Source: a virus. Taken from it: 64,000 nt of DNA. Numbering within the stretch: the stretch's first letter is position 1; every line of letters begins with the position of its first letter. Under the pieces are notes generated by a model. It saw only the letters and a list, made by a program, of their open reading frames with translations. It was not told the origin of the DNA and did no database searches. Location of the stretch: the IMG/VR virus record IMGVR_UViG_3300048997_000353, positions 32,001-96,000 of that record; one strand, 5' to 3'. Below are positions 16,962 through 63,306 of this stretch, piece after piece. The position numbers and the translations under genes are program-made.

Positions 16962-17047
16962 CGCACATCACGTAGCGGCATGTTCCCACTGGTCATGACA
17001 CGACGCGACATGTCCGCACACGACGGGACGTTACGGAGCAGCAAAAC
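16962..17047 (+). repeat. Orphan pentamer-repeat unit
   Basis: AGCGGC(16974) ATGTT CCCAC TGGTC ATGAC ACGAC GCGAC ATGTC CGCAC ACGAC GGGAC GTTAC GG AGCAGC(17037) AAAAC; spacing 63 = 8+5x11. Confidence 0.85.
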
Positions 17048-17102: not shown

Positions 17103-19019
17103 TTAGCTTTGGACCGGACCGTACTTGGCTTCGGCCTTTTTCAAGATGCGGGAGAACAACGCTTTCACTCCGGCCTTGAGGAAGGAAGATTTCTCAACCA
17201 CACGCGCAGCGCGTTCGCCGTATGTGCGATAGAGATCCATAACCAACTTGGCAACTGGTCCCGACTTTTCGTAGTCGTTGACCAGCCAAGTGCGGCACTT
17301 GCTGACCCGAGGTCCGGTGAAGAAATTCTCATCGAACGCGACTGCTGCCAGCCAGCACGGAGCCACAAAAGGACCGATTCCGGTTCTCACAGCAGTAATC
17401 CACGGCATGTAGTGAGCCAATACTTGGTGGATGTACGTGCCGAAGGTCCACTGCCGGGAAACCGTGGGCCACTCGATCGCGTAGTAATCCCGTTGAGTCA
17501 GGAACTGCCGCACGGCCGGGATCCGGCTATGCGGGTAGGGATTGGTGTTGATGTCGTACACGATCGTGCCGGCGGGAAACATCGGATGGAGCCGGATGGG
17601 AATGACGGCGGAACCGGTGGGGCTGATGGAGTATTTGGATTTGTACCCCGTCACGGCGAAGCCGGCGGTCAAGCCGGAATCCTGGCCCGCTTTGTCGTAC
17701 CCGAACACGAAGCTGTTGGTGCCCGTCGACGAGTAGATCACTGCGGACTCGAGTGAGGCGCGGACGTCGGACGAAACCCAGATAGCATCGGGTTGGGCTT
17801 GGTAGTTATTCCACATGAAGGCGAGGTCGGCTTCGATTTCGGCGACTTGGCCATTGCCGGCGGGGGTCAAGCTTCCGCCGTTCATGTCGGTCCAGTTTCC
17901 GTTGAGGAAAGTGTAAGTACCGAGGCCATCGAAATCGGTGGTCTGGTAGCTGTTGTCAACGTTGAGGCCAGCGGCGGCACCGGTTTGTGTTCCTGCAGCG
18001 GCAGCGACGATGGTGTAGCTGGGCCATGCGGTGATGGCGCCGAGTTTCACGTTGGCGGCGGATGCGGATACGTTCACACCCCAGAACCAGGCATAGGCGA
18101 CAGCGCCCTTCATGGCGGGGATGGAGACGTTAACTTTTTGTGCCGCTGCGTTTGTGGTCACGAGGGCGGCCACGTTGGAAATGGCGCTGCAGCCGCAGGC
18201 CACGTTCGTGGTTGTGCCGTCCGCGTTGGTCCGAACGTAATTGGTGGTGAGACCGTTTACGACGGAAGGGGGAGCCGCATAGCCGGCCTGTCCGCCCGGG
18301 TTCATGCCCATGCCGGTGATGGCGACAACCGCCACAACGACGTTGGCCGAAGTTCCGAGCGCGCCCGTTCCTGTTGCCAGGGCAGACGTCACGTTCGTGG
18401 CTTGACCGAGAGCGAAACCCAAGTTGCCGGCGTTGAGCGAATTGGGACCGGAGTTGCCCCAGATCGTCATCATTTCCTCTTGGAGCCGGAGGCGCGCCAA
18501 GTTGCGGAAATGTTCGTCGGCCAGGTTATCGGTGTAGCCTTCCCCGGCAAACTGCGCCGTGAACGTTTCTCCACCGTCCATGCCCATTTCCTTGTAAGTC
18601 GCGAGGTAATCGACTTCGTTCGGCGTGGCGATGGCGTTGCGTTGCCCTTCGAGCAAACCGGAATAGACGAACGTGGAGTTCGGATTCCGCGTGGCCTTCC
18701 AGTGCGCCGAGGTGCCGACGCCGGCATTCACTTTTCCGGACTTGCCGATCATCTGGATGAACGGCGTGAGCAACGGGAAAATGAAATAGGCGGGCCCGCG
18801 CAGATCGTAAAAATTGAAGCCGAGGGCGGTGGTGACGCCGGCCTTGATCAGCGCGCGGCCGGCACGCTTAACCAGCGGATGTTCGGGCGACCAGTCCTTG
18901 AGGGGGATGGCTCGTGCCTGCTTGCAAAGGTCGGCAATTTGCGGATCCGACATCGCCTTTGCCATCTGCCCGCGGCTCATCATGGTAGCGGCCGCGTACA
19001 TTTCTTGCGGAACTTTCAT
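17103..19019 (-). CDS. Major capsid protein with a C-terminal CFI-box-CTERM-like domain
   Basis: Follows portal-protease-scaffold and is followed by a strong terminator. The last 84 aa start CWLAAVAF...LYRTYGERAA. Confidence 0.75.
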   Translation of the reverse strand: MKVPQEMYAAATMMSRGQMAKAMSDPQIADLCKQARAIPLKDWSPEHPLVKRAGRALIKAGVTTALGFNFYDLRGPAYFIFPLLTPFIQMIGKSGKVNAGVGTSAHWKATRNPNSTFVYSGLLEGQRNAIATPNEVDYLATYKEMGMDGGETFTAQFAGEGYTDNLADEHFRNLARLRLQEEMMTIWGNSGPNSLNAGNLGFALGQATNVTSALATGTGALGTSANVVVAVVAITGMGMNPGGQAGYAAPPSVVNGLTTNYVRTNADGTTTNVACGCSAISNVAALVTTNAAAQKVNVSIPAMKGAVAYAWFWGVNVSASAANVKLGAITAWPSYTIVAAAAGTQTGAAAGLNVDNSYQTTDFDGLGTYTFLNGNWTDMNGGSLTPAGNGQVAEIEADLAFMWNNYQAQPDAIWVSSDVRASLESAVIYSSTGTNSFVFGYDKAGQDSGLTAGFAVTGYKSKYSISPTGSAVIPIRLHPMFPAGTIVYDINTNPYPHSRIPAVRQFLTQRDYYAIEWPTVSRQWTFGTYIHQVLAHYMPWITAVRTGIGPFVAPCWLAAVAFDENFFTGPRVSKCRTWLVNDYEKSGPVAKLVMDLYRTYGERAARVVEKSSFLKAGVKALFSRILKKAEAKYGPVQS

Positions 19020-24215: not shown

Positions 24216-24279
24216 GGACGGATTCTACGCGAGAAAAAAAGCAAATACTAGCGTGGGTGTTTGAAGCTGTACCAGAAGG

Positions 24280-24366
24280 TCAGGTTGTGTGCTTTGCTTT
24301 TTCCAGCAGCAACCAGGAAACAACACTGGAAAGAGCCATGAAAATGAGCCCGTCGACGTAAGCCAT
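24280..24366 (-). CDS. 28-aa hydrophobic peptide, type I toxin-like
   Basis: GGAGG SD, then MAYVDGLIFMALSSVVSWLLLEKAKHTT*. Confidence 0.5.
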   Translation of the reverse strand: MAYVDGLIFMALSSVVSWLLLEKAKHTT

Positions 24367-33256: not shown

Positions 33257-33999
33257 GCCGCTAGCTTCAGTCCTGGTTTCGTCGTGTAATATCTAGTGAT
33301 GCCGCCTCGTGCAGTCACGTGAAGTGTGGTGATGCCGCTGCATCCTGTTTTGCCTGACTCAGTTTCGCCGTTAGATGGTGCCGACCGGCTCCGCTTTGTC
33401 GTGCCGCTAAGTCGAGTCCGAAATTGTCTCGTCATGTCATGCCGCTACATTTCGTTTCGTCCGGTTTGCAAATTGCCGCCCCCGCGATGCTGCGTGATGC
33501 GATGTCCTGTCAAGCCGCTCGGTCTGGCGGTGCGAAGTGGAATCGAGTAACGCCGCTCTGTCCGGTCAGGTATGGTTCAGTGGGGTAAAGCCGTTTCGTT
33601 AAGTTTTGTCCTGTCACGAAATGTCCTATCAGGCCGCTGTGTTCAGTTCTGTTCTGTGGTGTCGCATACGGCCGCTGCATCGAATTTTGTAAGATTTAAT
33701 CTGGCGTTGCCGCTCCGTGGGATCCAGTAGTATCAAGTAAAGTCTGGTCAAGCCGCTGTGTATTTGTCATGTCACGTCCAGTCGGGCCGCTCGGTCAAGT
33801 TGTGCCGTGTGCGGTCTAGCCCGGCCGCTCCGTGGAGTTCAGTTTCGTTCAATTGCGTCCTGCCGCTACGTGACGTAAAGTTCGGTGAAGTGGTGCCGCT
33901 GAGTCACGCTTGGTGAAGCGGTGCCGCTCCGTGGTGTCATGCCGCGCCTGGTTGAGCAATGCCGCTATGTGGTGTGGCGTGATGTTAAGTGACGCCGCT
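33257..33999 (-). repeat. Pentamer-periodic repeat array 1 (21 motif copies)
   Basis: GCCGCT-like motif (+ strand) at spacings 44,33,33,36,38,34,39,38,38,43,38,38,43,34,38,38,33,28,38,33. The intervening DNA is made of GTNNN pentamers. Confidence 0.92.
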
Positions 34000-34179
34000 C
34001 GGTTTTTGGAAAATGAATGGGAACCGCTGAACATTGGAGTAACAGTCCAACTCTTTGCGGTTCCCCTTGAAACGGCCACGGCTCCGAGGCTAATCGCGGG
34101 TTGATCGTAAGCAGTTACGATGCTTCGTATCCCTATCGCCGTCCTCCGCCTATAGCTCCACTTGGTCACTAGGGCCGTT

Positions 34180-34371
34180 TCAATTACCAATCTTGGCGCG
34201 GACAAAGCAGTCTTTTGCCTCAAGCAGTTTGCGGAGTCCAGCCGATTTCTCAGGCCCATCAGGAAGTTGCGCGTCCATCGAGCAGGCGAGCGCGAATACA
34301 TCTCCGCTCACGCCCCTTAGGTGCTCTGGTAAGTGTGCGAAGTCGAAATATTTCATAATCGGTGATGGCAC
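34180..34371 (-). CDS. Small conserved phage helical-hairpin protein (possibly Acb2/Tad1-like)
   Basis: GGAGG SD and GTG start; YFDFAHLP...PDGPEKSAGLRKLLEAKDCFVRA. Confidence 0.65.
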   Translation of the reverse strand: MPSPIMKYFDFAHLPEHLRGVSGDVFALACSMDAQLPDGPEKSAGLRKLLEAKDCFVRAKIGN

Positions 34372-34439
34372 AGTGTTCCTCCATTTCGAGTTGCGATTAT
34401 AAGGGGCCGGATTCGGCGCTCCGGCCTGCGCTTCGTGAT

Positions 34440-35255
34440 TTAAGCCGTCGCCGCCTTGGCTGTTTCCGCGCCGTTCGCCTTGGCTGGTGCCTCGATCACT
34501 GGCTTCTCCCGCTTCTTCTGCCGGTCGCCCATCTCGATCTCGGCTTCGTCGACCCGGAAGCGGCCGCGGCCCAGCGATCGGCAACTGCCCAAACCGCACA
34601 TCATAATCATCGCAGTGACGTCGGTAAGATCAACCTCCTTCACGTTGGTGGTCAAGAATCGGAAGTTGAACGAAAATCTCGAGCCCGACGCCACACACTC
34701 GGAATGCTGGTAAATGCTCTTGGGTCCCTTCGGCGTATTCACCGAACCCATGAACGCACTCCAATAAGTTTTGGCCGGGCCTGTCATGTCCTCGTTCAGC
34801 ATGTACACCTTGTCCGGGGAATCAGCGTCGAGCAAACTAAATCCATCGGCCAAGACGCGCGCTGCTTCCGAGAAATCACCCTTCGTTCCCCGCAGATCGG
34901 AAAATATTTTGAGACGCGATGCGGCCTGCTTTATGCAGGCCTGCACCATCCAGTTGCCGATATACGCTCCGCGCTCCGTGCGCCGGAGAGCGTTGACTCC
35001 ATACACTTGCTCGGGCTGCAATTCCCCGGTTTCGCTCGGAAGTTCCTCCTGCCCAACCTCTTCGTGAAGGATTCTCTGGACAGCCTTCTCGGCATCATCG
35101 CCGGTCAGTTCCAAATGATGCTCCACGAACGCGCGAACACCACGTTCATCCGCTGGTTGCCCGCCCACAAACTCGGTTACGAAAGTGGCTTGCACTTTCA
35201 CAACTCCCGTTAGTTTCTGGTAAATCGCTTCTAGGTCTTTTGCGTTGAATTTCAT
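34440..35255 (-). CDS. Stand-alone RAMP (Cas7/Csm3-like) protein
   Basis: 271 aa. Beta1 followed by GG; YIGNWMVQACIKQAA helix; SE strand; C-terminal Gly-rich loop GLGSCRSLGRGRF. AAAGGAG SD. Confidence 0.8.
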   Translation of the reverse strand: MKFNAKDLEAIYQKLTGVVKVQATFVTEFVGGQPADERGVRAFVEHHLELTGDDAEKAVQRILHEEVGQEELPSETGELQPEQVYGVNALRRTERGAYIGNWMVQACIKQAASRLKIFSDLRGTKGDFSEAARVLADGFSLLDADSPDKVYMLNEDMTGPAKTYWSAFMGSVNTPKGPKSIYQHSECVASGSRFSFNFRFLTTNVKEVDLTDVTAMIMMCGLGSCRSLGRGRFRVDEAEIEMGDRQKKREKPVIEAPAKANGAETAKAATA

Positions 35256-35329
35256 TTTCTGTTCTCCTTTGTGATCTGCGAACGAATCGATCATTGCTCG
35301 CTAGATTTCGTGCCGAAAAGTTTCGTTTT

Positions 35330-36062
35330 GCCGCTATGTGGTGTCCAGTAGCGTGTGGTCATGCCAAGTACAGTAGCGCCGCTCTGTGCGGTCGAGTAAC
35401 TGTCGAATTGGGTCCGGTCTTGTCGTGCCGCTCTGTGACGTATAGTAAAGTCTTGTCTTGTCCCGCCGCTCTGAACGGTTGAATGGAGTTGGGTGCCGCC
35501 GCTGGGTCGCATCGTGTAATGTTCTGTCATGCTTCGCGACGCCGCTGGATACTGCGATGTCGAGTGTAGTCGAGCCGTTGCGTGGAATATGGTGAAGTGG
35601 CGTACTGCCGCAGTAGTGCCACGCGCTGTCCAATGCGGAATTGCCGCTCGGTCGAGTCCGGTGCAGTAGGGTCTTGTGGTATGGAGCCGCTGCGTAGAAT
35701 CGAGTCCTGTGACATCATGGGTTGCCGTTTTATTCTGCTCGGTTTGGTCGAAGTCAAGTTTGCCGCTCCGTCATGCCGCTCTGTCGTGTCGAGTTCAATG
35801 GTGTGCGGTCGTGTAAAGTCCTGCCGCTCCGTGCTGCCAGGTTGTGTCGTGTGAGATGGGGTATAGCCGCTCTGTTGCATAGAGTTATGTTGTGTCCAGC
35901 CGCTCAGTCTTGTCGTGTCTGGGCATGTGGAGTTTGGCCGCTGTGTAAAGCTCAGTTCGAGTGCGCTTTGCCGCCTGCGTGATGCCGTGCGCGATGGTGT
36001 AATGCCGCTGAATCGGGTGCCAACTTGTGAAGTGCTGTCAAATGGCATCTTGTCGAGCCGCT
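35330..36062 (-). repeat. Pentamer-periodic repeat array 2 (20 motif copies)
   Basis: Spacings 48,49,38,33,43,33,33,36,43,38,38,13,48,43,33,38,33,34,53. Confidence 0.92.
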
Positions 36063-36065
36063 AGA

Positions 36066-36398
36066 TTATTTCTTTCCGGTTGGAGTTCCGCAGTTCGAAC
36101 AGAACTTCGCACCTGCGATTTGCGTGTTACAGGTTCCGCAGATCAAGTCCTCCGGTGCAGGCCCCGAAATGAGACGGATCTCCTTCTCGGGCCGCTTACC
36201 GCGGTTTAATCGTTGGTTTTGAATCATCAAATCGCCAATTTTGCAAAATATTTTGGCATTGCCTTGTTTGATGCGCGCGACAGCTTCCGTCATGGAGCCA
36301 TCGTCGATCCCTTCTCCGATCTGGTTGACCAGGGCCACAACATCCCCTAGATTTTCAACCTTGATTGTCTTTCTTGCCGCCGGCGGTTGGTCGGTCAT
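36066..36398 (-). CDS. 110-aa protein with a C-terminal double Zn ribbon, between arrays 2 and 3
   Basis: AAAGGAG SD; CGTC...KFCSNCG. Confidence 0.7.
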   Translation of the reverse strand: MTDQPPAARKTIKVENLGDVVALVNQIGEGIDDGSMTEAVARIKQGNAKIFCKIGDLMIQNQRLNRGKRPEKEIRLISGPAPEDLICGTCNTQIAGAKFCSNCGTPTGKK

Positions 36399-36457
36399 CT
36401 TTTCTCCTTTAAGAGTTTAGTTCTCTCGCATTTTTGGGCTTCGTTTTGTTTTGTGTT

Positions 36458-36981
36458 GCCGCTTTATCGAGTAGAGTCACGTACAGTGCTGTCGAGTAAC
36501 GCCGCTGTGTCGCGTACCGTCGAGTCAGGTGACGGCCAGTAGCGCCGCTGAGTAAAGTCGAGTCGGATCGGGTCCCGTATTGCCGTTCCGTAAGGTCACG
36601 TTGGGTTGAGCCGCTGGGTAAAGTCCAGTCTTATCCCGTCGAGTCGCGGAGAATACTGCCGGGTCATGTGGCGCCGCTGCGTTGTGTAAGGTCAAGGATT
36701 GTCGGGTCGAGTGGGGAAAGGCCGCTCGGTGGTATAAAGTTGCGTGCAGTCGGAGCATGCCGCTGCGCAGAGCTGTGTGAGGGAATGTGGCAAATTGCCG
36801 TTCGGTGTGGATAGGTTTCGTCATGTCATGCCGCATTATCAAGTGGAGTCTGGTGGGATCGGGCCGCTTGTCTTGTTGAGTGCGGTGTCGGAGGGTCATG
36901 CCGCTATATTGAATTGGGTCGGGTCGGAGCATGGAAAGTGGGGCCGCTACGACTTGTGACGTTCTGGTTGGTATCGCCGCT
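36458..36981 (-). repeat. Pentamer-periodic repeat array 3 (14 motif copies)
   Basis: Spacings 43,43,38,28,63,48,38,38,33,33,37,43,33. Confidence 0.92.
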
Positions 36982-51480: not shown

Positions 51481-51920
51481 GACTTAAGCCGGACGCCAGC
51501 AGGGACCGGAACAGGGGTTCAACGCATTAGATTCCAGAGCAAAGTTAGGATGTGGCCTTGAGCCGATGATTCCTACTAACTTCCGCGATGTGGCCCCGCG
51601 CCGAATTCGGGATGGTCCTCTGGAGTTGATTAGGTTCCTACAGAATAGCTCTATGGTTTGTTGTCCTATCGCTGACCATAGTGAAGGAAAGCCAATTCCT
51701 CTACCTGTACACAATCCACGGACGAAAGAAGATGCCTAAGTCAGATGAAGCGCAATCGGATAGCGCGGAATTATCCGTCCGACGCGTAGAACGGTAAGTC
51801 TACGCCACAACAGATTTTGCAGATGGACTCCGGTCAGGACCGCCGAGAAAGCGGAACCCGCAGGCTACACGCTAGGCAAACCGGAGTTAATGCACACGGT
51901 CCGTCCAAAGTCGGACCAAA
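51481..51920 (+). ncRNA. Long structured non-coding leader
   Basis: No credible ORF; at least seven visible helices (e.g. GACTTAAGC/GCCTAAGTC, ACTCCGGT/ACCGGAGT, GCGTAGA/TCTACGC). Confidence 0.5.
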
Positions 51921-58703: not shown

Positions 58704-58954
58704 AGGTCCGGTACCACAAAGCGGAAGAGATTATCGCCAACATCCGGAAGTATCACGGCTTCCGCTCTGCGAGTATCACGCACATGGCCCGGCTGAATTC
58801 AGAAACAGAACTCGAGATCGTGCCGGTGCCACATCCGCCCGATCCTGAATCAGCCGGAAAATGCAGTTTGCCCCGGTTCCAATCCGTAGACGGTTTGCGT
58901 TGGGTATGCGGCCACTTTGCCGAGATCGACTAATTCAAAAGGAGAATCAAGACC

Positions 58955-59878
58955 ATGGCAACCAAAGCTACTATCGTAGAACAATCCCTCGGAGATCAGC
59001 TACAGGAACGCGCAGTCGGATTGATCCTCACATTCTCCGGCATCGGCAACCGCCGGAAAGTGAGCATGTCCGATGTGGAAGTGGACGCCGACAAGGAACT
59101 CTTGGCGATGTCGAAAAAACTAATCGACGCGGAAGAGTTTGAGGCCATCCAATCGCTCGACGGCGAAGCGCGCCGCTATATCGAAACCCGCGCTCTGCCC
59201 TCGCAATTAAAGAAGGGAATCTATTTACTTCCCAACGCGCTCGTCACCGAAGTGGAAGAAAAACTGTCCGAGTTTGCTGCCAAGCGCGGCACGCTGGTCG
59301 AAGCCTTGCTGCTGCGCTACAGCGAACTGGTTGCCGAATCCCGCCGGCGACTCAAATCACTCTTCGATGCCACTGACTATCCCAACGCTGACTACATCCG
59401 CAACGCGTTCAAGCTGTCCTGGCGCATCATCGGATTCACAACGCCGACCAGCCTCAAGGAACTCGACCGGGCGCTCTACGACCGCGAATGCAAGAAGGCC
59501 GCGGAACAGTGGGCCGAATCGTGGAAAAACATTGAGCAACTTCTCGCGTGGAATCTGGCCGATCTGGTCGAACATTTGATCGGCCGCCTCGAACCCGACG
59601 AGAAAACCGGGAAAAAGAAAACGTTTAAGGACTCCGCCGTGACTAAAATTCAAGATTTCCTCAACACGTTCGACGCGCGGAACATCGGCAATTCAACCGA
59701 ACTCAAGGCGCTGGTCGACAAAACCAGAGTTTTGATTGCGGATGTAAACCCCGAGCAACTCCGCACCAGTCCCCGCACGCGGGATACGGTTGCCAAGGGT
59801 TTCGAGAAGATTGCCGACCTACTCGATCCAATGCTCGTCGAAAAACCAACTCGCGCTATTTCGTTTGAAGAGGATTGA
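58955..59878 (+). CDS. DUF3150-like protein
   Basis: SKKLID, GIYLLP, FDATDYP, LRTSPRTR motifs. Confidence 0.6.
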   Translation: MATKATIVEQSLGDQLQERAVGLILTFSGIGNRRKVSMSDVEVDADKELLAMSKKLIDAEEFEAIQSLDGEARRYIETRALPSQLKKGIYLLPNALVTEVEEKLSEFAAKRGTLVEALLLRYSELVAESRRRLKSLFDATDYPNADYIRNAFKLSWRIIGFTTPTSLKELDRALYDRECKKAAEQWAESWKNIEQLLAWNLADLVEHLIGRLEPDEKTGKKKTFKDSAVTKIQDFLNTFDARNIGNSTELKALVDKTRVLIADVNPEQLRTSPRTRDTVAKGFEKIADLLDPMLVEKPTRAISFEED

Positions 59879-59914
59879 GTTTGGCGGAGTCACCGGCCAC
59901 TTGGCTTCGCCAGG

Positions 59915-59961
59915 CAGGGCGCGCAGTACGTCATGGTCCTGCGCGCCCTGTTCTAACTTTT
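59915..59961 (+). terminator. Intrinsic terminator-like hairpin
   Basis: CAGGGCGCGCAG/CTGCGCGCCCTG followed by TTCTAACTTTT. Confidence 0.7.
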
Positions 59962-59967
59962 CGGTTT

Positions 59968-60022
59968 GTTTTTGCCGCTGGATTTTGTCTCGTGATGTCA
60001 GGTCATGCGGGGTGTCGCCGCA
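59968..60022 (-). repeat. Orphan pentamer-repeat unit
   Basis: + strand: GCCGCT(59974) GG ATTTT GTCTC GTGAT GTCAG GTCAT GCGGG GTGTC GCCGCA(60017); spacing 43. Confidence 0.85.
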
Positions 60023-60034
60023 AAGGAGAATATC

Positions 60035-60700
60035 ATGCTACCGATTATTTGCTTGGGATTTTTGTTAGGCATGAGGCACGCGACTGATGTGGACCATGTG
60101 TTTGCCGTAACGACGCTGGTTTCCCGCTATCGCAGCGCGGCGCGTGCGGCCATCGTCGGCGCGTTGTGGGGTGTTGGACATACGGTCATGGTGATGATCG
60201 TCGGCACTGGAATCATTTTATTCCAGTGGGTGATTCCAGTCCGGGCCGGTTTGGGAATGGAATTTTCGGTTGCCTTGATGCTGGTCGTTCTTGGGATTCT
60301 GAATTTAACCGGAGTCCCAGGCCGACAGGTTGAAGTGTACGATCACGCGACCGATGAATTCGTTCCACGTCCGCAACCACGGCTTGTGGCAACAATCAGG
60401 CCGGTGGTGGTCGGATTAGTTCACGGCTTGGCAGGGTCCGCAGCAATCGCGCTCATGGTTCTCAGTACAATCCACGAACCGCGCTTGGCTGTCGCGTATC
60501 TTGCATTGTTTGGGACCGGAACACTGGCCGGGATGATGCTGATTACAGCGGCGCTCGCGTATTCCTTCACGAAGATGCCAGCGCAGTTACTCCGCATTGG
60601 TTCTGGCATCCTGTCTCTCGGCTTCGGTCTTTTCTTGATCTATCAAATCGGAATCGTCGGTGGGCTCTTTACAAGCCATCCGGTCTGGAGTCCACGATGA
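60035..60700 (+). CDS. NiCoT/HoxN/HupN-type nickel/cobalt transporter
   Basis: LGMRHATDVDH signature, WGVGHT, GLVHGLAGS; about six TM segments. Confidence 0.88.
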   Translation: MLPIICLGFLLGMRHATDVDHVFAVTTLVSRYRSAARAAIVGALWGVGHTVMVMIVGTGIILFQWVIPVRAGLGMEFSVALMLVVLGILNLTGVPGRQVEVYDHATDEFVPRPQPRLVATIRPVVVGLVHGLAGSAAIALMVLSTIHEPRLAVAYLALFGTGTLAGMMLITAALAYSFTKMPAQLLRIGSGILSLGFGLFLIYQIGIVGGLFTSHPVWSPR

Positions 60701-61909
60701 AACTACAAAAGATCATTTACGTGCCGGAAGCAAGAGTAGAATTTTCCGCCGAGGACGTGAACGCGCTGTTCGCGGCATCGAGGGAGCACTACGATACGCT
60801 GTGTCGGCAACAGTCGGAGCCAGGTGGAATGCTTTGGGGACTCCGTAACCGGATTGAATATCCGCCTGTTGAACGGTGTCTGACGACTCACGACATTGAC
60901 TTGCTTTCGAAGATTTCCGAACGCATCAAAAACGTCCTAAATGACGACCGTCGCGATGCGGTCATTTCCGGAATCCGTTCTGAGTTACATAGGATTTTCA
61001 GAACGCTCAACGATGAATACAAGAGGCTAAACCCATGAAACTCAACTGCGGCGAGTGCCTCGACAAACACGTAACGGTGATTCGGCTGTGGCAAGACGGA
61101 ACTTGTCCATGCTGCCTCAGCGGGCACGATCTGGTGACGTGGACAACTTCAAACGGAGAAAAACGCCACGGAGTGCGGAAATTCGCGAAGGCTGGCTCCG
61201 ACACGTATGTCCTGTGGATAAATCCAAGCGGAGCCGTCAACGGCGGCGGTTGGGTGGACCCGGCGCAACTCACCGAGGGCCACACATGAAATCCAAACAG
61301 GATTGGGTTGTCATTCGTGATGCCGGCGCGACGGCGCTGTGCTTGCGGTGCGGCAAAATGGCGTCCGTCAAATTGCCGATGCCGTTGATGATGTATGTCG
61401 CGGCGATGAAAAGAATTCTGCAAACTTCACCGCAGGTGCAAACCGAAATGACGCGTCTATTCGTGGTGCCCACAAAGCAAACTTTCCAAAAGCGCCGAGC
61501 GACCACAGTGCAACTCACACTGGCACAGCGCATCCTGCTATCCGAACTCCAGTTGAAGCGCATGACGGCTGGCAAACGGAAGCCGACTATCACGCAGATG
61601 GTTAGCGAAGGCCTCGCGTTGCTGTTCCGGCGAGAGAAAATCAAGGAGAACCCATGAAGGAATTCATCGTCAAAGTGCAATGGCCCATTTCGACCAATGA
61701 GCCGCAACCGCTTGTTCTGGTTTACAACCGAGATCGGTCAATCCATCAAAAGTTTCCTGCAACCACGGAACTTCGAGAGCGGATGAACAATCGCCCGAAG
61801 GTTTATTTTTGGGCGGTTGTCAATCAACTCAATGGCAAGCTGGAACTCGGGAGAAACGCTCCCGATCAAAACTGGTAGGAAAGGCCGGGAATTGCTCCCC
61901 GGCCCGAAT

Positions 61910-61958
61910 GTTTTGCCGCTGTGTGACGTAATGATCCGTGGTGTCTAGTCCTGCCGCT
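61910..61958 (-). repeat. Orphan pentamer-repeat unit
   Basis: + strand: GCCGCT(61915) GT GTGAC GTAAT GATCC GTGGT GTCTA GTCCT GCCGCT(61953); spacing 38. Confidence 0.85.
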
Positions 61959-62014
61959 TTGCAAAAGCATATCACGCAACCGACGCGTAGAAGTCGCAAA
62001 AGGAGAATCGACCA

Positions 62015-62857
62015 ATGGCCACAAAAGTTTGGAAGGGATTTTTGAACTTCGGCCTTGTAACCATTCCAGTATATTTGAATACAGGCGCACGCGGCGAGAG
62101 CGTGAGCCTCAACACGTTCCACGAACCCTGCGGCTCCCGCGTTCGGATGCCGAAGTTCTGCGACACCTGCAACAAACAGATTCCCCCGGAAGAGATCGTG
62201 AAGGGCTACGCGAACGGCGATTCGTATGTGCCCATCACAAAAGAAGAATTGGAATCCATCGCGCCGGCTTCGGACAGGACGATGGAAATTCGCGAATGCG
62301 TCGAAGCCGACAAAGTTGATCCGATTTATTTGGCTGAATCCTTCTACTTGCTCCCGGACGATGCGGGCAGGAAAGCCTATTCCCTGCTGGTCCAGGCGCT
62401 CGCGGATTCCGGGCGCTGTGCCATCGCACAACTCACAAAGAGTAATCGCGAACACATCGTCCTGCTCAGGCCGCGCGAGAATGGCCTCGTGGCGCATTTC
62501 CTTTACTTCGAAAACGAAGTCAACCGCGTGCCTGAGTTTGAATCTCTCAAACAGATCGAGCTGTCGAAGGCGGAGCACAAGATGGCCGCGCAGTTGGTGG
62601 ACGATCTAGCCGCGCCGTTCGAACCTGGCCAGTACGAGGATGGATACTCGATGCGACTCAACGCCTTAATCGCGTCCAAACTCGACAAGAACACACCAGC
62701 ACCGAAACCCATCAAGTCCCAGGCACCTGCGTCAATGGATCTATCGGCGGCGCTGGCGGCTTCGCTGGGCCGACCGAAGCGGAAAATCACGCTCGACGAA
62801 GAACCGGCTGCCCCGAAAAAAGCTGGAGCTGGCAAGAAGGGACGCCGAGTAGCGTAA
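62015..62857 (+). CDS. ku: Ku DNA end-binding protein
   Basis: WKGFLNFGLVTIPV, EIVKGY, IYLAESFYLLP, FEPGQYEDGY, DLSAALAASL. Confidence 0.93.
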   Translation: MATKVWKGFLNFGLVTIPVYLNTGARGESVSLNTFHEPCGSRVRMPKFCDTCNKQIPPEEIVKGYANGDSYVPITKEELESIAPASDRTMEIRECVEADKVDPIYLAESFYLLPDDAGRKAYSLLVQALADSGRCAIAQLTKSNREHIVLLRPRENGLVAHFLYFENEVNRVPEFESLKQIELSKAEHKMAAQLVDDLAAPFEPGQYEDGYSMRLNALIASKLDKNTPAPKPIKSQAPASMDLSAALAASLGRPKRKITLDEEPAAPKKAGAGKKGRRVA

Positions 62858-62868
62858 GGAGAATCGAA

Positions 62869-63306
62869 ATGTCGTGGGAAACTGCAAAAGATAAGCTGAT
62901 CTGTTTCATGCTGGTTGACGATTCCCTTGGCATAAAAGTGTGTGGACCCAGCGCCAAGGGAATCGCCTTCTGGCGAGCGTTCATTCTTGAGGATCGTCAA
63001 ACCGGGGAAATCCATGCGGTTTGGCGATTCAAATATCCGGACGGCAATACTAGCTGGACGGAAATCACATGCACGAACGGACTATCGGGGGACGCGGCAA
63101 AGAACCATCTGCGCTGTGCCCTTGAAGATGTAATCAACAAGGCCAATGACGTTTTTGGATTGCCGCAGAAGGTCGAGTGCTTCTATCCACCGGACGACGG
63201 CGGTGATCCAGGAAAAACTTTGCTGTGGCTCGACGAGCACGACTTGATTGAATTCAGGGTTGAGAAAATCGATCCCAAGAAAGGAGATGGCGGACATGGA
63301 TCGTGA
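62869..63306 (+). CDS. Hypothetical protein
   Basis: TAAGGAG SD. Confidence 0.55.
   Translation: MSWETAKDKLICFMLVDDSLGIKVCGPSAKGIAFWRAFILEDRQTGEIHAVWRFKYPDGNTSWTEITCTNGLSGDAAKNHLRCALEDVINKANDVFGLPQKVECFYPPDDGGDPGKTLLWLDEHDLIEFRVEKIDPKKGDGGHGS

Follow-up and report, generated by a model that had tools for sequence, protein, structure and literature searches.

The virus genome analyzed here (IMG/VR record IMGVR_UViG_3300048997_000353) is 108,441 bp long and comes from a soil metagenome. Positions 32001-96000 of the record form the window, the whole stretch of 64,000 nucleotides to which the coordinates below refer unless another locus is named. Near the right end of the window, a short unit built like the guides of the phage's own repeat arrays stands by itself between two genes. 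The features of this locus are as follows.

58955-59878, + strand: gene carrying the predicted target; 307 aa, DUF3150-like (PF11348, E = 1.1e-5; 28 homologues).
59825-59847, + strand: predicted DNA target of the solo guide, GAtCCaATgCTcGTcGAaAAaCC; 15/16 read bases match, at codons 291-298 (DPMLVEKP) of the upstream gene.
59915-59950, + strand: G+C-rich hairpin (RNA fold), 12 bp in its outer stem, with a T-rich tract after it.
59968-59979, - strand: 3' delimiter AGCGGC with the terminal motif AAAAAC, a motif confined to array ends and the three orphan units.
59974-60022, - strand: putative solo vrRNA unit; the grammar matches the array logo, and the RNA strand is assigned from related loci.
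60017-60022, - strand: 5' delimiter TGCGGC, which is AGCGGC with one mismatch (+ strand, GCCGCA, abutting the Shine-Dalgarno (SD) sequence).
60023-60700, + strand: SD sequence AAGGAG and gene for a NicO-like membrane protein (PF03824, 29.5 bits against a cut-off of 27.7).

On the + strand, the 49 bases of 59974-60022 are GCCGCT (59974-59979), GG, seven 5-nt steps (ATTTT, GTCTC, GTGAT, GTCAG, GTCAT, GCGGG, and GTGTC), and GCCGCA (60017-60022), with a delimiter spacing of 43 (8 + 5 × 7). The steps begin with GT (5/7), AT (1/7), or GC (1/7), and thus all seven with a purine-pyrimidine pair; the mix is that of the arrays (GT 130, AT 24, and GC 15 of 182). AAGGAG (60023-60028) follows GCCGCA directly, and the ATG of the NicO-like gene is at 60035. 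The first-pass annotation had described a 43-nt unit whose second delimiter, GCCGCA, touches AAGGAG, and the letters at 59974-60028 agree with it. The - strand reads TGCGGC, GA, (CAC CC), (CGC AT), (GAC CT), (GAC AT), (CAC GA), (GAC AA), (AAT CC), and AGCGGC, which gives eight guide dinucleotides (NN): GA, CC, AT, CT, AT, GA, AA, and CC. The same annotation had this strand end with AGCGGC and AAAAAC and then meet a hairpin; it does so, the 12-bp hairpin of 59915-59950 starting 17 nt past the AAAAAC end. The hairpin is likely the intrinsic terminator of the gene at 58955-59878; a consensus terminator scan did not list it among its calls. Being 3' of the unit on the - strand, it could also cap a small RNA. 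The unit thus lies between a terminator hairpin and a ribosome-binding site (RBS), 24.7 kb away from the vipr gene described below. No RNA run with matches to 59000-62000 was found, no sigma-70-like promoter was obtained by a promoter scan of both strands in 59500-62300, and hand-picked -10-like motifs upstream of the solo units were dropped, as they were inconsistent among the solos. When the unit RNAs and their pairing with the flanks were folded, they did no better than shuffled sequences.

Membership in the array grammar was evaluated with two scans. The motif-free scan (GT in a 5-nt register, at least 5/7) was applied to both strands of the whole 108,441-bp genome; it returned the arrays and four clusters outside them, including the 59974 unit, with about 1.1 outside clusters expected by chance. 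The fourth periodic-GT cluster (24259-24293, + strand, 5/7) has no delimiter and is probably the roughly one chance cluster per genome. The strict caller, with which two delimiters in register and the periodicity were both required, returned two orphans, those at 59974 and 61915, besides 26 array units; zero calls were made on the reversed sequences of six phage genomes (536 kb, both strands). Within this genome, AGC[AG]GC with AAAAC-like letters after it is confined to the three orphans and the ends of arrays 2 and 3, and it marks array ends in two related phages as well. The 59974 unit is a real, isolated unit of the array grammar. On the related phage contigs (G001-G005), the strict caller gave no solos, and there were no self matches. 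The first-pass annotation had also likened the 3' end of the unit to those of arrays 2 and 3: the AAAAC ending is indeed common to both, but there is no clear hairpin after either array. The order of hairpin, unit, and RBS, with the AGCGGC strand antisense to the local mRNA, holds at 3/3 orphans as it had proposed, the RBS at 61915 being about 40 nt beyond the unit. Since the inferred RNA strand of all three solos is antisense to the flanking genes, each solo would need its own, putative promoter.

The arrays and the protein encoded among them were identified as follows.

33257-36981, - strand: three xAC/NN arrays punctuated by AGCGGC; vipr, a Zn-ribbon gene, and a small phrog_1761 gene lie among them.
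34440-35255, - strand: vipr-like gene for a 271-aa RAMP with the Cas7 fold (AF2 model, Foldseek, hhalign).

The arrays extend over 33257-34000, 35330-36062, and 36458-36981, with vipr between arrays 1 and 2. Their grammar on the + strand is GCCGCT, NN, and GT at each 5 nt, with a delimiter spacing of 8 + 5n; about 50 short abutting guides of 4-11 steps are separated by AGC|GGC. That the orphan belongs with a RAMP protein, as had been proposed, fits the fold of the 271-aa product, which is Cas7/Csm3-like: the AF2 model (pLDDT 87.8) gave Csm3, Cmr4, and type VII Cas7 as the best PDB folds in Foldseek (E = 6e-8), and a phage 'RAMP superfamily protein' as the best viral fold (E = 8e-13). Near the C-terminus, a conserved motif G-L-G-S-x-K-S-L-E-R-G-K-F is present. 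Aligned with hhalign, the 271-aa protein and the SUSP1 Vipr are collinear between helix 1 and the G-loop, although the match is weak (E = 0.018, probability 2.6%). The product of 34440-35255 matched no family of Pfam or PHROG, no cas genes were found nearby, no solved Vipr relative was obtained by the PDB sequence search, and tblastn against GenBank phages gave no relative. In a large protein set, 61 relatives were found (157 cluster representatives), none of them functionally named.

The loci of these relatives (six from IMG/VR and 26 from metagenomes) carry AGCGGC-punctuated arrays beside the protein gene. All of the strictly called units (141/141, in 31 related loci) are on the vipr strand, and the unit spacing is 3 mod 5 in 116/142. 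The pentamer logo of the vipr strand is x (G 0.41-0.54), R (A 0.85), Y (C or T, 0 purines), N, and N. No CRISPR was found with TRF and Rfam, and a CRISPR array or orphan repeat was rejected as an assignment: the delimiter is 6 nt as against repeats of 23-50 nt, and the 'spacers' have a fixed dinucleotide at each 5 nt.

The known system closest to this arrangement is VIPR (Viral Interference Programmable Repeat), a CRISPR relative first described in 2026 (bioRxiv 10.64898/2026.04.26.720920, 10.64898/2026.04.26.720927, 10.64898/2026.10.15.759431). In VIPR, a lone phage RAMP (Vipr) polymerizes on the vrRNA with one protomer per 5-nt repeat, as in the published structure; the GGY scaffold is hidden and NN is exposed, the NN pairs read double-stranded DNA with every third base skipped, and binding silences transcription (VIPR preprints). 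'Staggered' arrays of abutting vrRNAs and alternative repeats have been reported in two of these (10.64898/2026.04.26.720920, 10.64898/2026.04.26.720927), and GAC/NN and CAC/NN repeats adjoining Vipr-like folds in another (10.64898/2026.10.21.760802). For type II VIPR, a block to RNA polymerase has been shown, and the 3' tail of the vrRNA is a pseudoknot (VIPR preprints). In the practice of these preprints, matches are counted from 80% of NN, and natural targets average 89%; the natural targets are other mobile elements, and self-targeting is not reported. In the SUSP1 Vipr, D177 and W178 hold the two G's of the scaffold.

The present locus shares with VIPR generally a phage-borne lone RAMP, 5-nt repeats in which 2 variable bases follow a 3-nt scaffold, arrays encoded on the same strand as vipr (also the strand of the GGYNN tracts in SUSP1, KT454805), and target sites that keep codon phase, the wobble base being the one skipped. 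The xAC/NN pentamer parallels GGY/NN, and the AGCGGC delimiter may parse as AGC plus a canonical GGC-NN step. We conclude that the arrays and the 271-aa Cas7-fold protein are a non-canonical VIPR system with xAC/NN instead of GGY/NN. The differences are as follows: published VIPR RNAs are about 100 nt long with 9-16 repeats and a tail, whereas here the guides are short, abutting, and of 4-11 steps, and a structured 3' tail like the published pseudoknot is absent, the array ends and solos carrying AGCGGC-AAAAC. The G-loop is GLGS-x-(K/R)S as against GVGDWR in SUSP1, and thus the scaffold-reading residues would differ.

The locus contains no nuclease gene; the accessory genes encode Zn-ribbon, small phrog_1761, and HTH/RHH proteins. 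Two of these between the arrays, a 110-aa protein with a C-terminal zinc ribbon (36066-36398, - strand; weak Pfam match) and the 60-aa phrog_1761 protein (34180-34362, - strand), are candidate vap genes. An inverted repeat (GGGAACCGC ... GCGGTTCCC) occupies 34020-34065; on the - strand it is followed by ATTCATTTTCC, 8 nt, and the first AGCGGC of array 1. With this terminator-like hairpin ahead of it, array 1 may require a promoter of its own. A 1318-aa protein (P0160, '11 stretches') was considered as a fused Vipr and rejected, because it is an fn3-repeat protein.

The 59974 guide was decoded with the published rule, in which NN pairs are read and one target base between pairs is skipped (a wildcard). 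Among 216,882 positions (the genome, both strands), the guide GA.CC.AT.CT.AT.GA.AA.CC has a unique best match at 59825-59847, with 15/16 read bases identical. The unit had been called guide-like in the first-pass annotation, and its variable dinucleotides do spell a nearby DNA site: this site is 127 bp from the unit, within the upstream gene, 10 codons ahead of its stop and just before the terminator, and all skipped bases are codon third positions. A score of 15/16 was reached by shuffled guides in 1% of 200 trials; by uniform-base arithmetic, chance matches of at least 15/16 are expected 2.5e-3 times genome-wide and 1.8e-5 times within 400 bp. Only scattered background matches were obtained when 0, 2, or 3 bases were skipped, when the register was shifted or the order reversed, and when three variable bases per step were taken as the code. 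The x base does not track the skipped base (12/38). The gapped match is strand-symmetric and cannot tell which strand is the RNA. The single self mismatch is ATN in the guide as against GTC in the genome (Ile/Met against Val); in 23 homologues of the product of 58955-59878, this column most often has Ile.

IMG/VR was scanned with the 16-base gapped pattern (GANCCNATNCTNATNGANAANCC), and 23 exact matches were found (L031-L053), about the number expected by chance. All 23 are in ORFs with the skip on the wobble position (0 in other frames); no homologue of the gene at 58955-59878 is among them, and the hosts look unrelated (AT-rich). Six of the 23 are at N-termini resembling the ribonucleotide-reductase small subunit (MEPILIENPNRFVIFPI). 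The contiguous 21-mer reading of the guide had no match in IMG/VR. Searches of sequence collections for siblings of the target gene and of ku gave only relatives of 32-39% identity or nothing, and when three soil DNA runs were compared to 58900-62900, only the source contig was recovered, with no sibling alleles.

The other two solos, and one unit at the end of array 2, were decoded under the same rule.

16974-17042, + strand: third solo unit; best genome-wide match at 17374-17408, 21/24.
35330-35383, - strand: array 2, final unit, located directly upstream of vipr; nine NN, 18/18 identical to vipr codons 103-111 (34924-34949).
61915-61958, - strand: second solo unit; best genome-wide match at 62057-62076, 13/14.

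The site of the 61915 solo covers codons 15-21 (VTIPVYL) of ku, about 100 bp away, the solo being upstream of ku; its only mismatch, CTN against TTG, is synonymous (Leu). The site of the 16974 solo covers codons 538-549 of the gene at 17103-19019 (- strand, 638 aa, phrog_13692), about 330 bp away, the solo coming after that gene, and the mismatches are CGN against AGA (Arg/Arg) and two Ile/Val exchanges. The self matches of the three solos are thus 94%, 93%, and 88%, and each is the unique best match genome-wide and is in codon phase. By arithmetic (1,600 of 216,882 positions each), the probability is about 4e-7 that the unique best matches of three guides would each be no more than 400 bp away. 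In all three solos, the mismatches are synonymous or Ile/Val exchanges that preserve the protein, and 5/6 mismatches are A/G transitions; they look like allelic variation.

The array-2 guide spells MVQACIKQA, in the most conserved helix of Vipr, with the skips on the wobble bases. About 3e-6 matches of 18/18 are expected by arithmetic; the match is so improbable by chance that it calibrates the strand-independent details of the decoding rule, and it shows that self-matching guides exist in this phage. At the homologous site in the vipr genes of relatives, the same guide matches 14-16/18, below the 18/18 of its own vipr. This guide could serve autoregulation, use against rivals, or both. In a metagenome relative (L061, vipr 52% identical), unit 1347-1405, which lies directly downstream of vipr, matches its own vipr at 1122-1150 (17/20, locus E = 4e-4); vipr-spelling guides are therefore not unique to this phage. 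None of the other 37 array units had a significant self match, which fits external targets, as published. A 13/14 match of an array-1 unit (33633-33676) in vipr is out of codon phase and was rejected as probably due to chance.

The grammar membership of the 59974 unit, the Cas7 fold of its partner, the conserved pairing of the protein with the arrays, and the near-perfect gapped match next door were computed here. Taken together, they suggest that the unit is probably a solo vrRNA gene belonging to the non-canonical VIPR system of this phage, with 59825-59847 as its target. The - strand of the unit would be transcribed, and about eight protomers of Vipr (the product of 34440-35255) would coat the eight 5-nt steps, each holding the xAC (purine-pyrimidine) scaffold and exposing the NN pair. 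The filament would then read double-stranded DNA, two bases read and one skipped, and settle on 59825-59847 in the last codons of the upstream gene, where it may block RNA polymerase, as with type II VIPR, and so cut off the gene end and the read-through into the NicO block. Both the binding and the block are proposed by analogy with the published systems. Since only 10 codons separate the site from the stop, with the terminator close behind, the phage's own genome would be affected mainly in the read-through into the NicO-like block and not at the RBS; for silencing the upstream gene itself, this is a poor place. We lean slightly to the view that the DNA acted on is that of sibling phages carrying the spelled allele (Ile/Met for Val), the phage's own linked copy being an escape allele, over repression of its own operon. 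Two of the three solo sites are the conserved codons nearest to the guide, as tight linkage would favor. Against an escape allele, the 15/16 match is within the published 80% cut-off and above the 89% mean, so that the phage's own copy would be unprotected. For the genome as a whole, we give about even chances to a scheme in which cassettes of linked weapon and escape allele (RNA-guided marker exclusion between siblings) are combined with perfectly self-matching guides that form a repressor circuit for the phage's own genes, vipr included.

Regulation in cis of the phage's own genes is possible, though we consider it rather doubtful. Here the complex of Vipr and the solo would sit on the phage's own DNA at the end of 58955-59878, reinforce the terminator, and shut off read-through into the NicO block once Vipr accumulates; ku would be turned off by the 61915 solo, the genes beyond 17103 by the 16974-17042 solo, and vipr itself by the array-2 unit, and together these guides would make an RNA-guided timing circuit. 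The 18/18 guide speaks for this, as relatives' vipr genes reach 16/18 at most, and so does the match of the L061 relative to its own vipr. The self matches of the solos also compare well with the 80% threshold and the 89% natural mean of the preprints, and the guides lie 100-400 bp from their sites inside long co-directional operons. On the other side, all three solos carry at least one self mismatch with the protein preserved, which a foreign allele fits better than a maintained operator would; two of the three sites are at the 3' ends of genes, a complex that acts in trans has no need to be encoded nearby, and the VIPR preprints found no self-targeting in the systems tested. The first-pass annotation had placed the effect at the RBS of the downstream gene, which it called a Ni transporter, through an antisense RNA. 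We consider an antisense RNA or a RAMP-bound leader acting there, by contiguous pairing or SD occlusion, highly unlikely. The delimiter does abut AAGGAG, and in a fold of the whole region on the + strand the U-rich tract pairs with the SD region; without the terminator hairpin, however, this pairing is gone and the fold is no better than shuffles (z = 0.11), and the other two solos do not touch an SD sequence. Moreover, VIPR uses a gapped code to read DNA, and here it leads to the 3' end of the upstream gene (59825-59847) and not to the RBS. The units of the 31 loci are on the strand that is antisense here, and Vipr would thus not coat the mRNA strand. An effect on the NicO-like gene is possible only indirectly, through the block to read-through transcription.

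Two further explanations deny the unit a function. A decaying or inert copy, moved from the arrays by recombination into a tolerant intergenic gap and neither expressed nor used, seems very improbable. It would agree with the negative results of the RNA search and the promoter scan, with the lack of solos in five related phage contigs, and with a distant relative of the upstream gene that has a hairpin and then an RBS with nothing between. Such a copy, however, would not spell its neighbor, and the unique best matches of 3/3 solos lie within 400 bp and in codon phase; the grammar is also intact: the two delimiters and the end motif are present, and 7/7 steps are purine-pyrimidine. Chance resemblance to the array grammar has almost nothing to recommend it: periodic GT by itself does give about one false cluster per genome, like the delimiter-free one at 24259, but the strict caller made 0 calls in the 536 kb of reversed controls, the end motif is specific, and the gapped match next door does not depend on the grammar.

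Free-standing homing endonucleases of phages cut the neighboring gene of relatives, with their own copy immune. By analogy, the preferred reading, a solo guide directed at siblings, shares with them a weapon beside the locus it recognizes, a carrier copy that differs by a few protein-preserving changes, and a tight linkage that keeps weapon and immunity together; homing endonucleases cut and copy, whereas here the locus has no nuclease and the effect would be silencing. In CreTA (with creA next to creT), and in the repression of the cas9 promoter by the long form of the tracrRNA, guide-like RNAs direct CRISPR effectors to host genes nearby. Shared with these are a degenerate or solitary guide beside the bound gene and an outcome of repression instead of cleavage; they act by contiguous partial pairing at promoters with CRISPR effectors, whereas the code here is gapped and the sites are inside coding sequence, and the toxin-antitoxin logic of CreTA is not evident at the 59974 solo.

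Solo vrRNAs have been published from F5 satellites and VIPR-null SUSP1-like phages, where their targets are host REP decoys, the vipr genes and vrRNAs of rivals, and satellites (Lopez et al., 10.64898/2026.10.15.759431). Like these, the 59974 solo is a lone guide unit with an end motif in non-coding DNA of a mobile element, far from vipr; its NN would be read with a one-base skip, and it would borrow Vipr made elsewhere. The published solos are on elements without vipr, whereas the present one is in a genome that encodes vipr and three arrays; they target other elements, whereas the best match found for it anywhere is the carrier's own neighboring gene (15/16). The repeat is xAC/NN as against GGY/NN, and only AGCGGC and AAAAC stand in place of the 40-nt pseudoknot tail. 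The kind of system is already published; a solo VIPR guide with a near-self neighboring target is not described in the VIPR preprints.

In one soil phage, three dispersed solos each lie beside a gene that they nearly spell, and an array guide spells vipr perfectly. This offers an internal, experiment-free check that the gapped code extends to xAC/NN guides that are AGCGGC-punctuated, very short, and abutting. If the proposed reading is true, a self-timing circuit or linked allele-specific warfare would be at work, either of which goes beyond the published inter-element targets. The phage's own allele and the spelled allele, one base apart, give a concrete handle on mismatch tolerance, and 8-step guides with 6-nt punctuation would be of practical interest for compact programmable repressors.

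As for ribozymes, hammerhead-interspersed VIPR arrays have been published. In the present genome, at 15 kb from the arrays and with no link to them seen, a twister-P5 ribozyme was called with Rfam at 51818-51915 (+ strand; 39.5 bits as against a gathering score of 37.6 bits).
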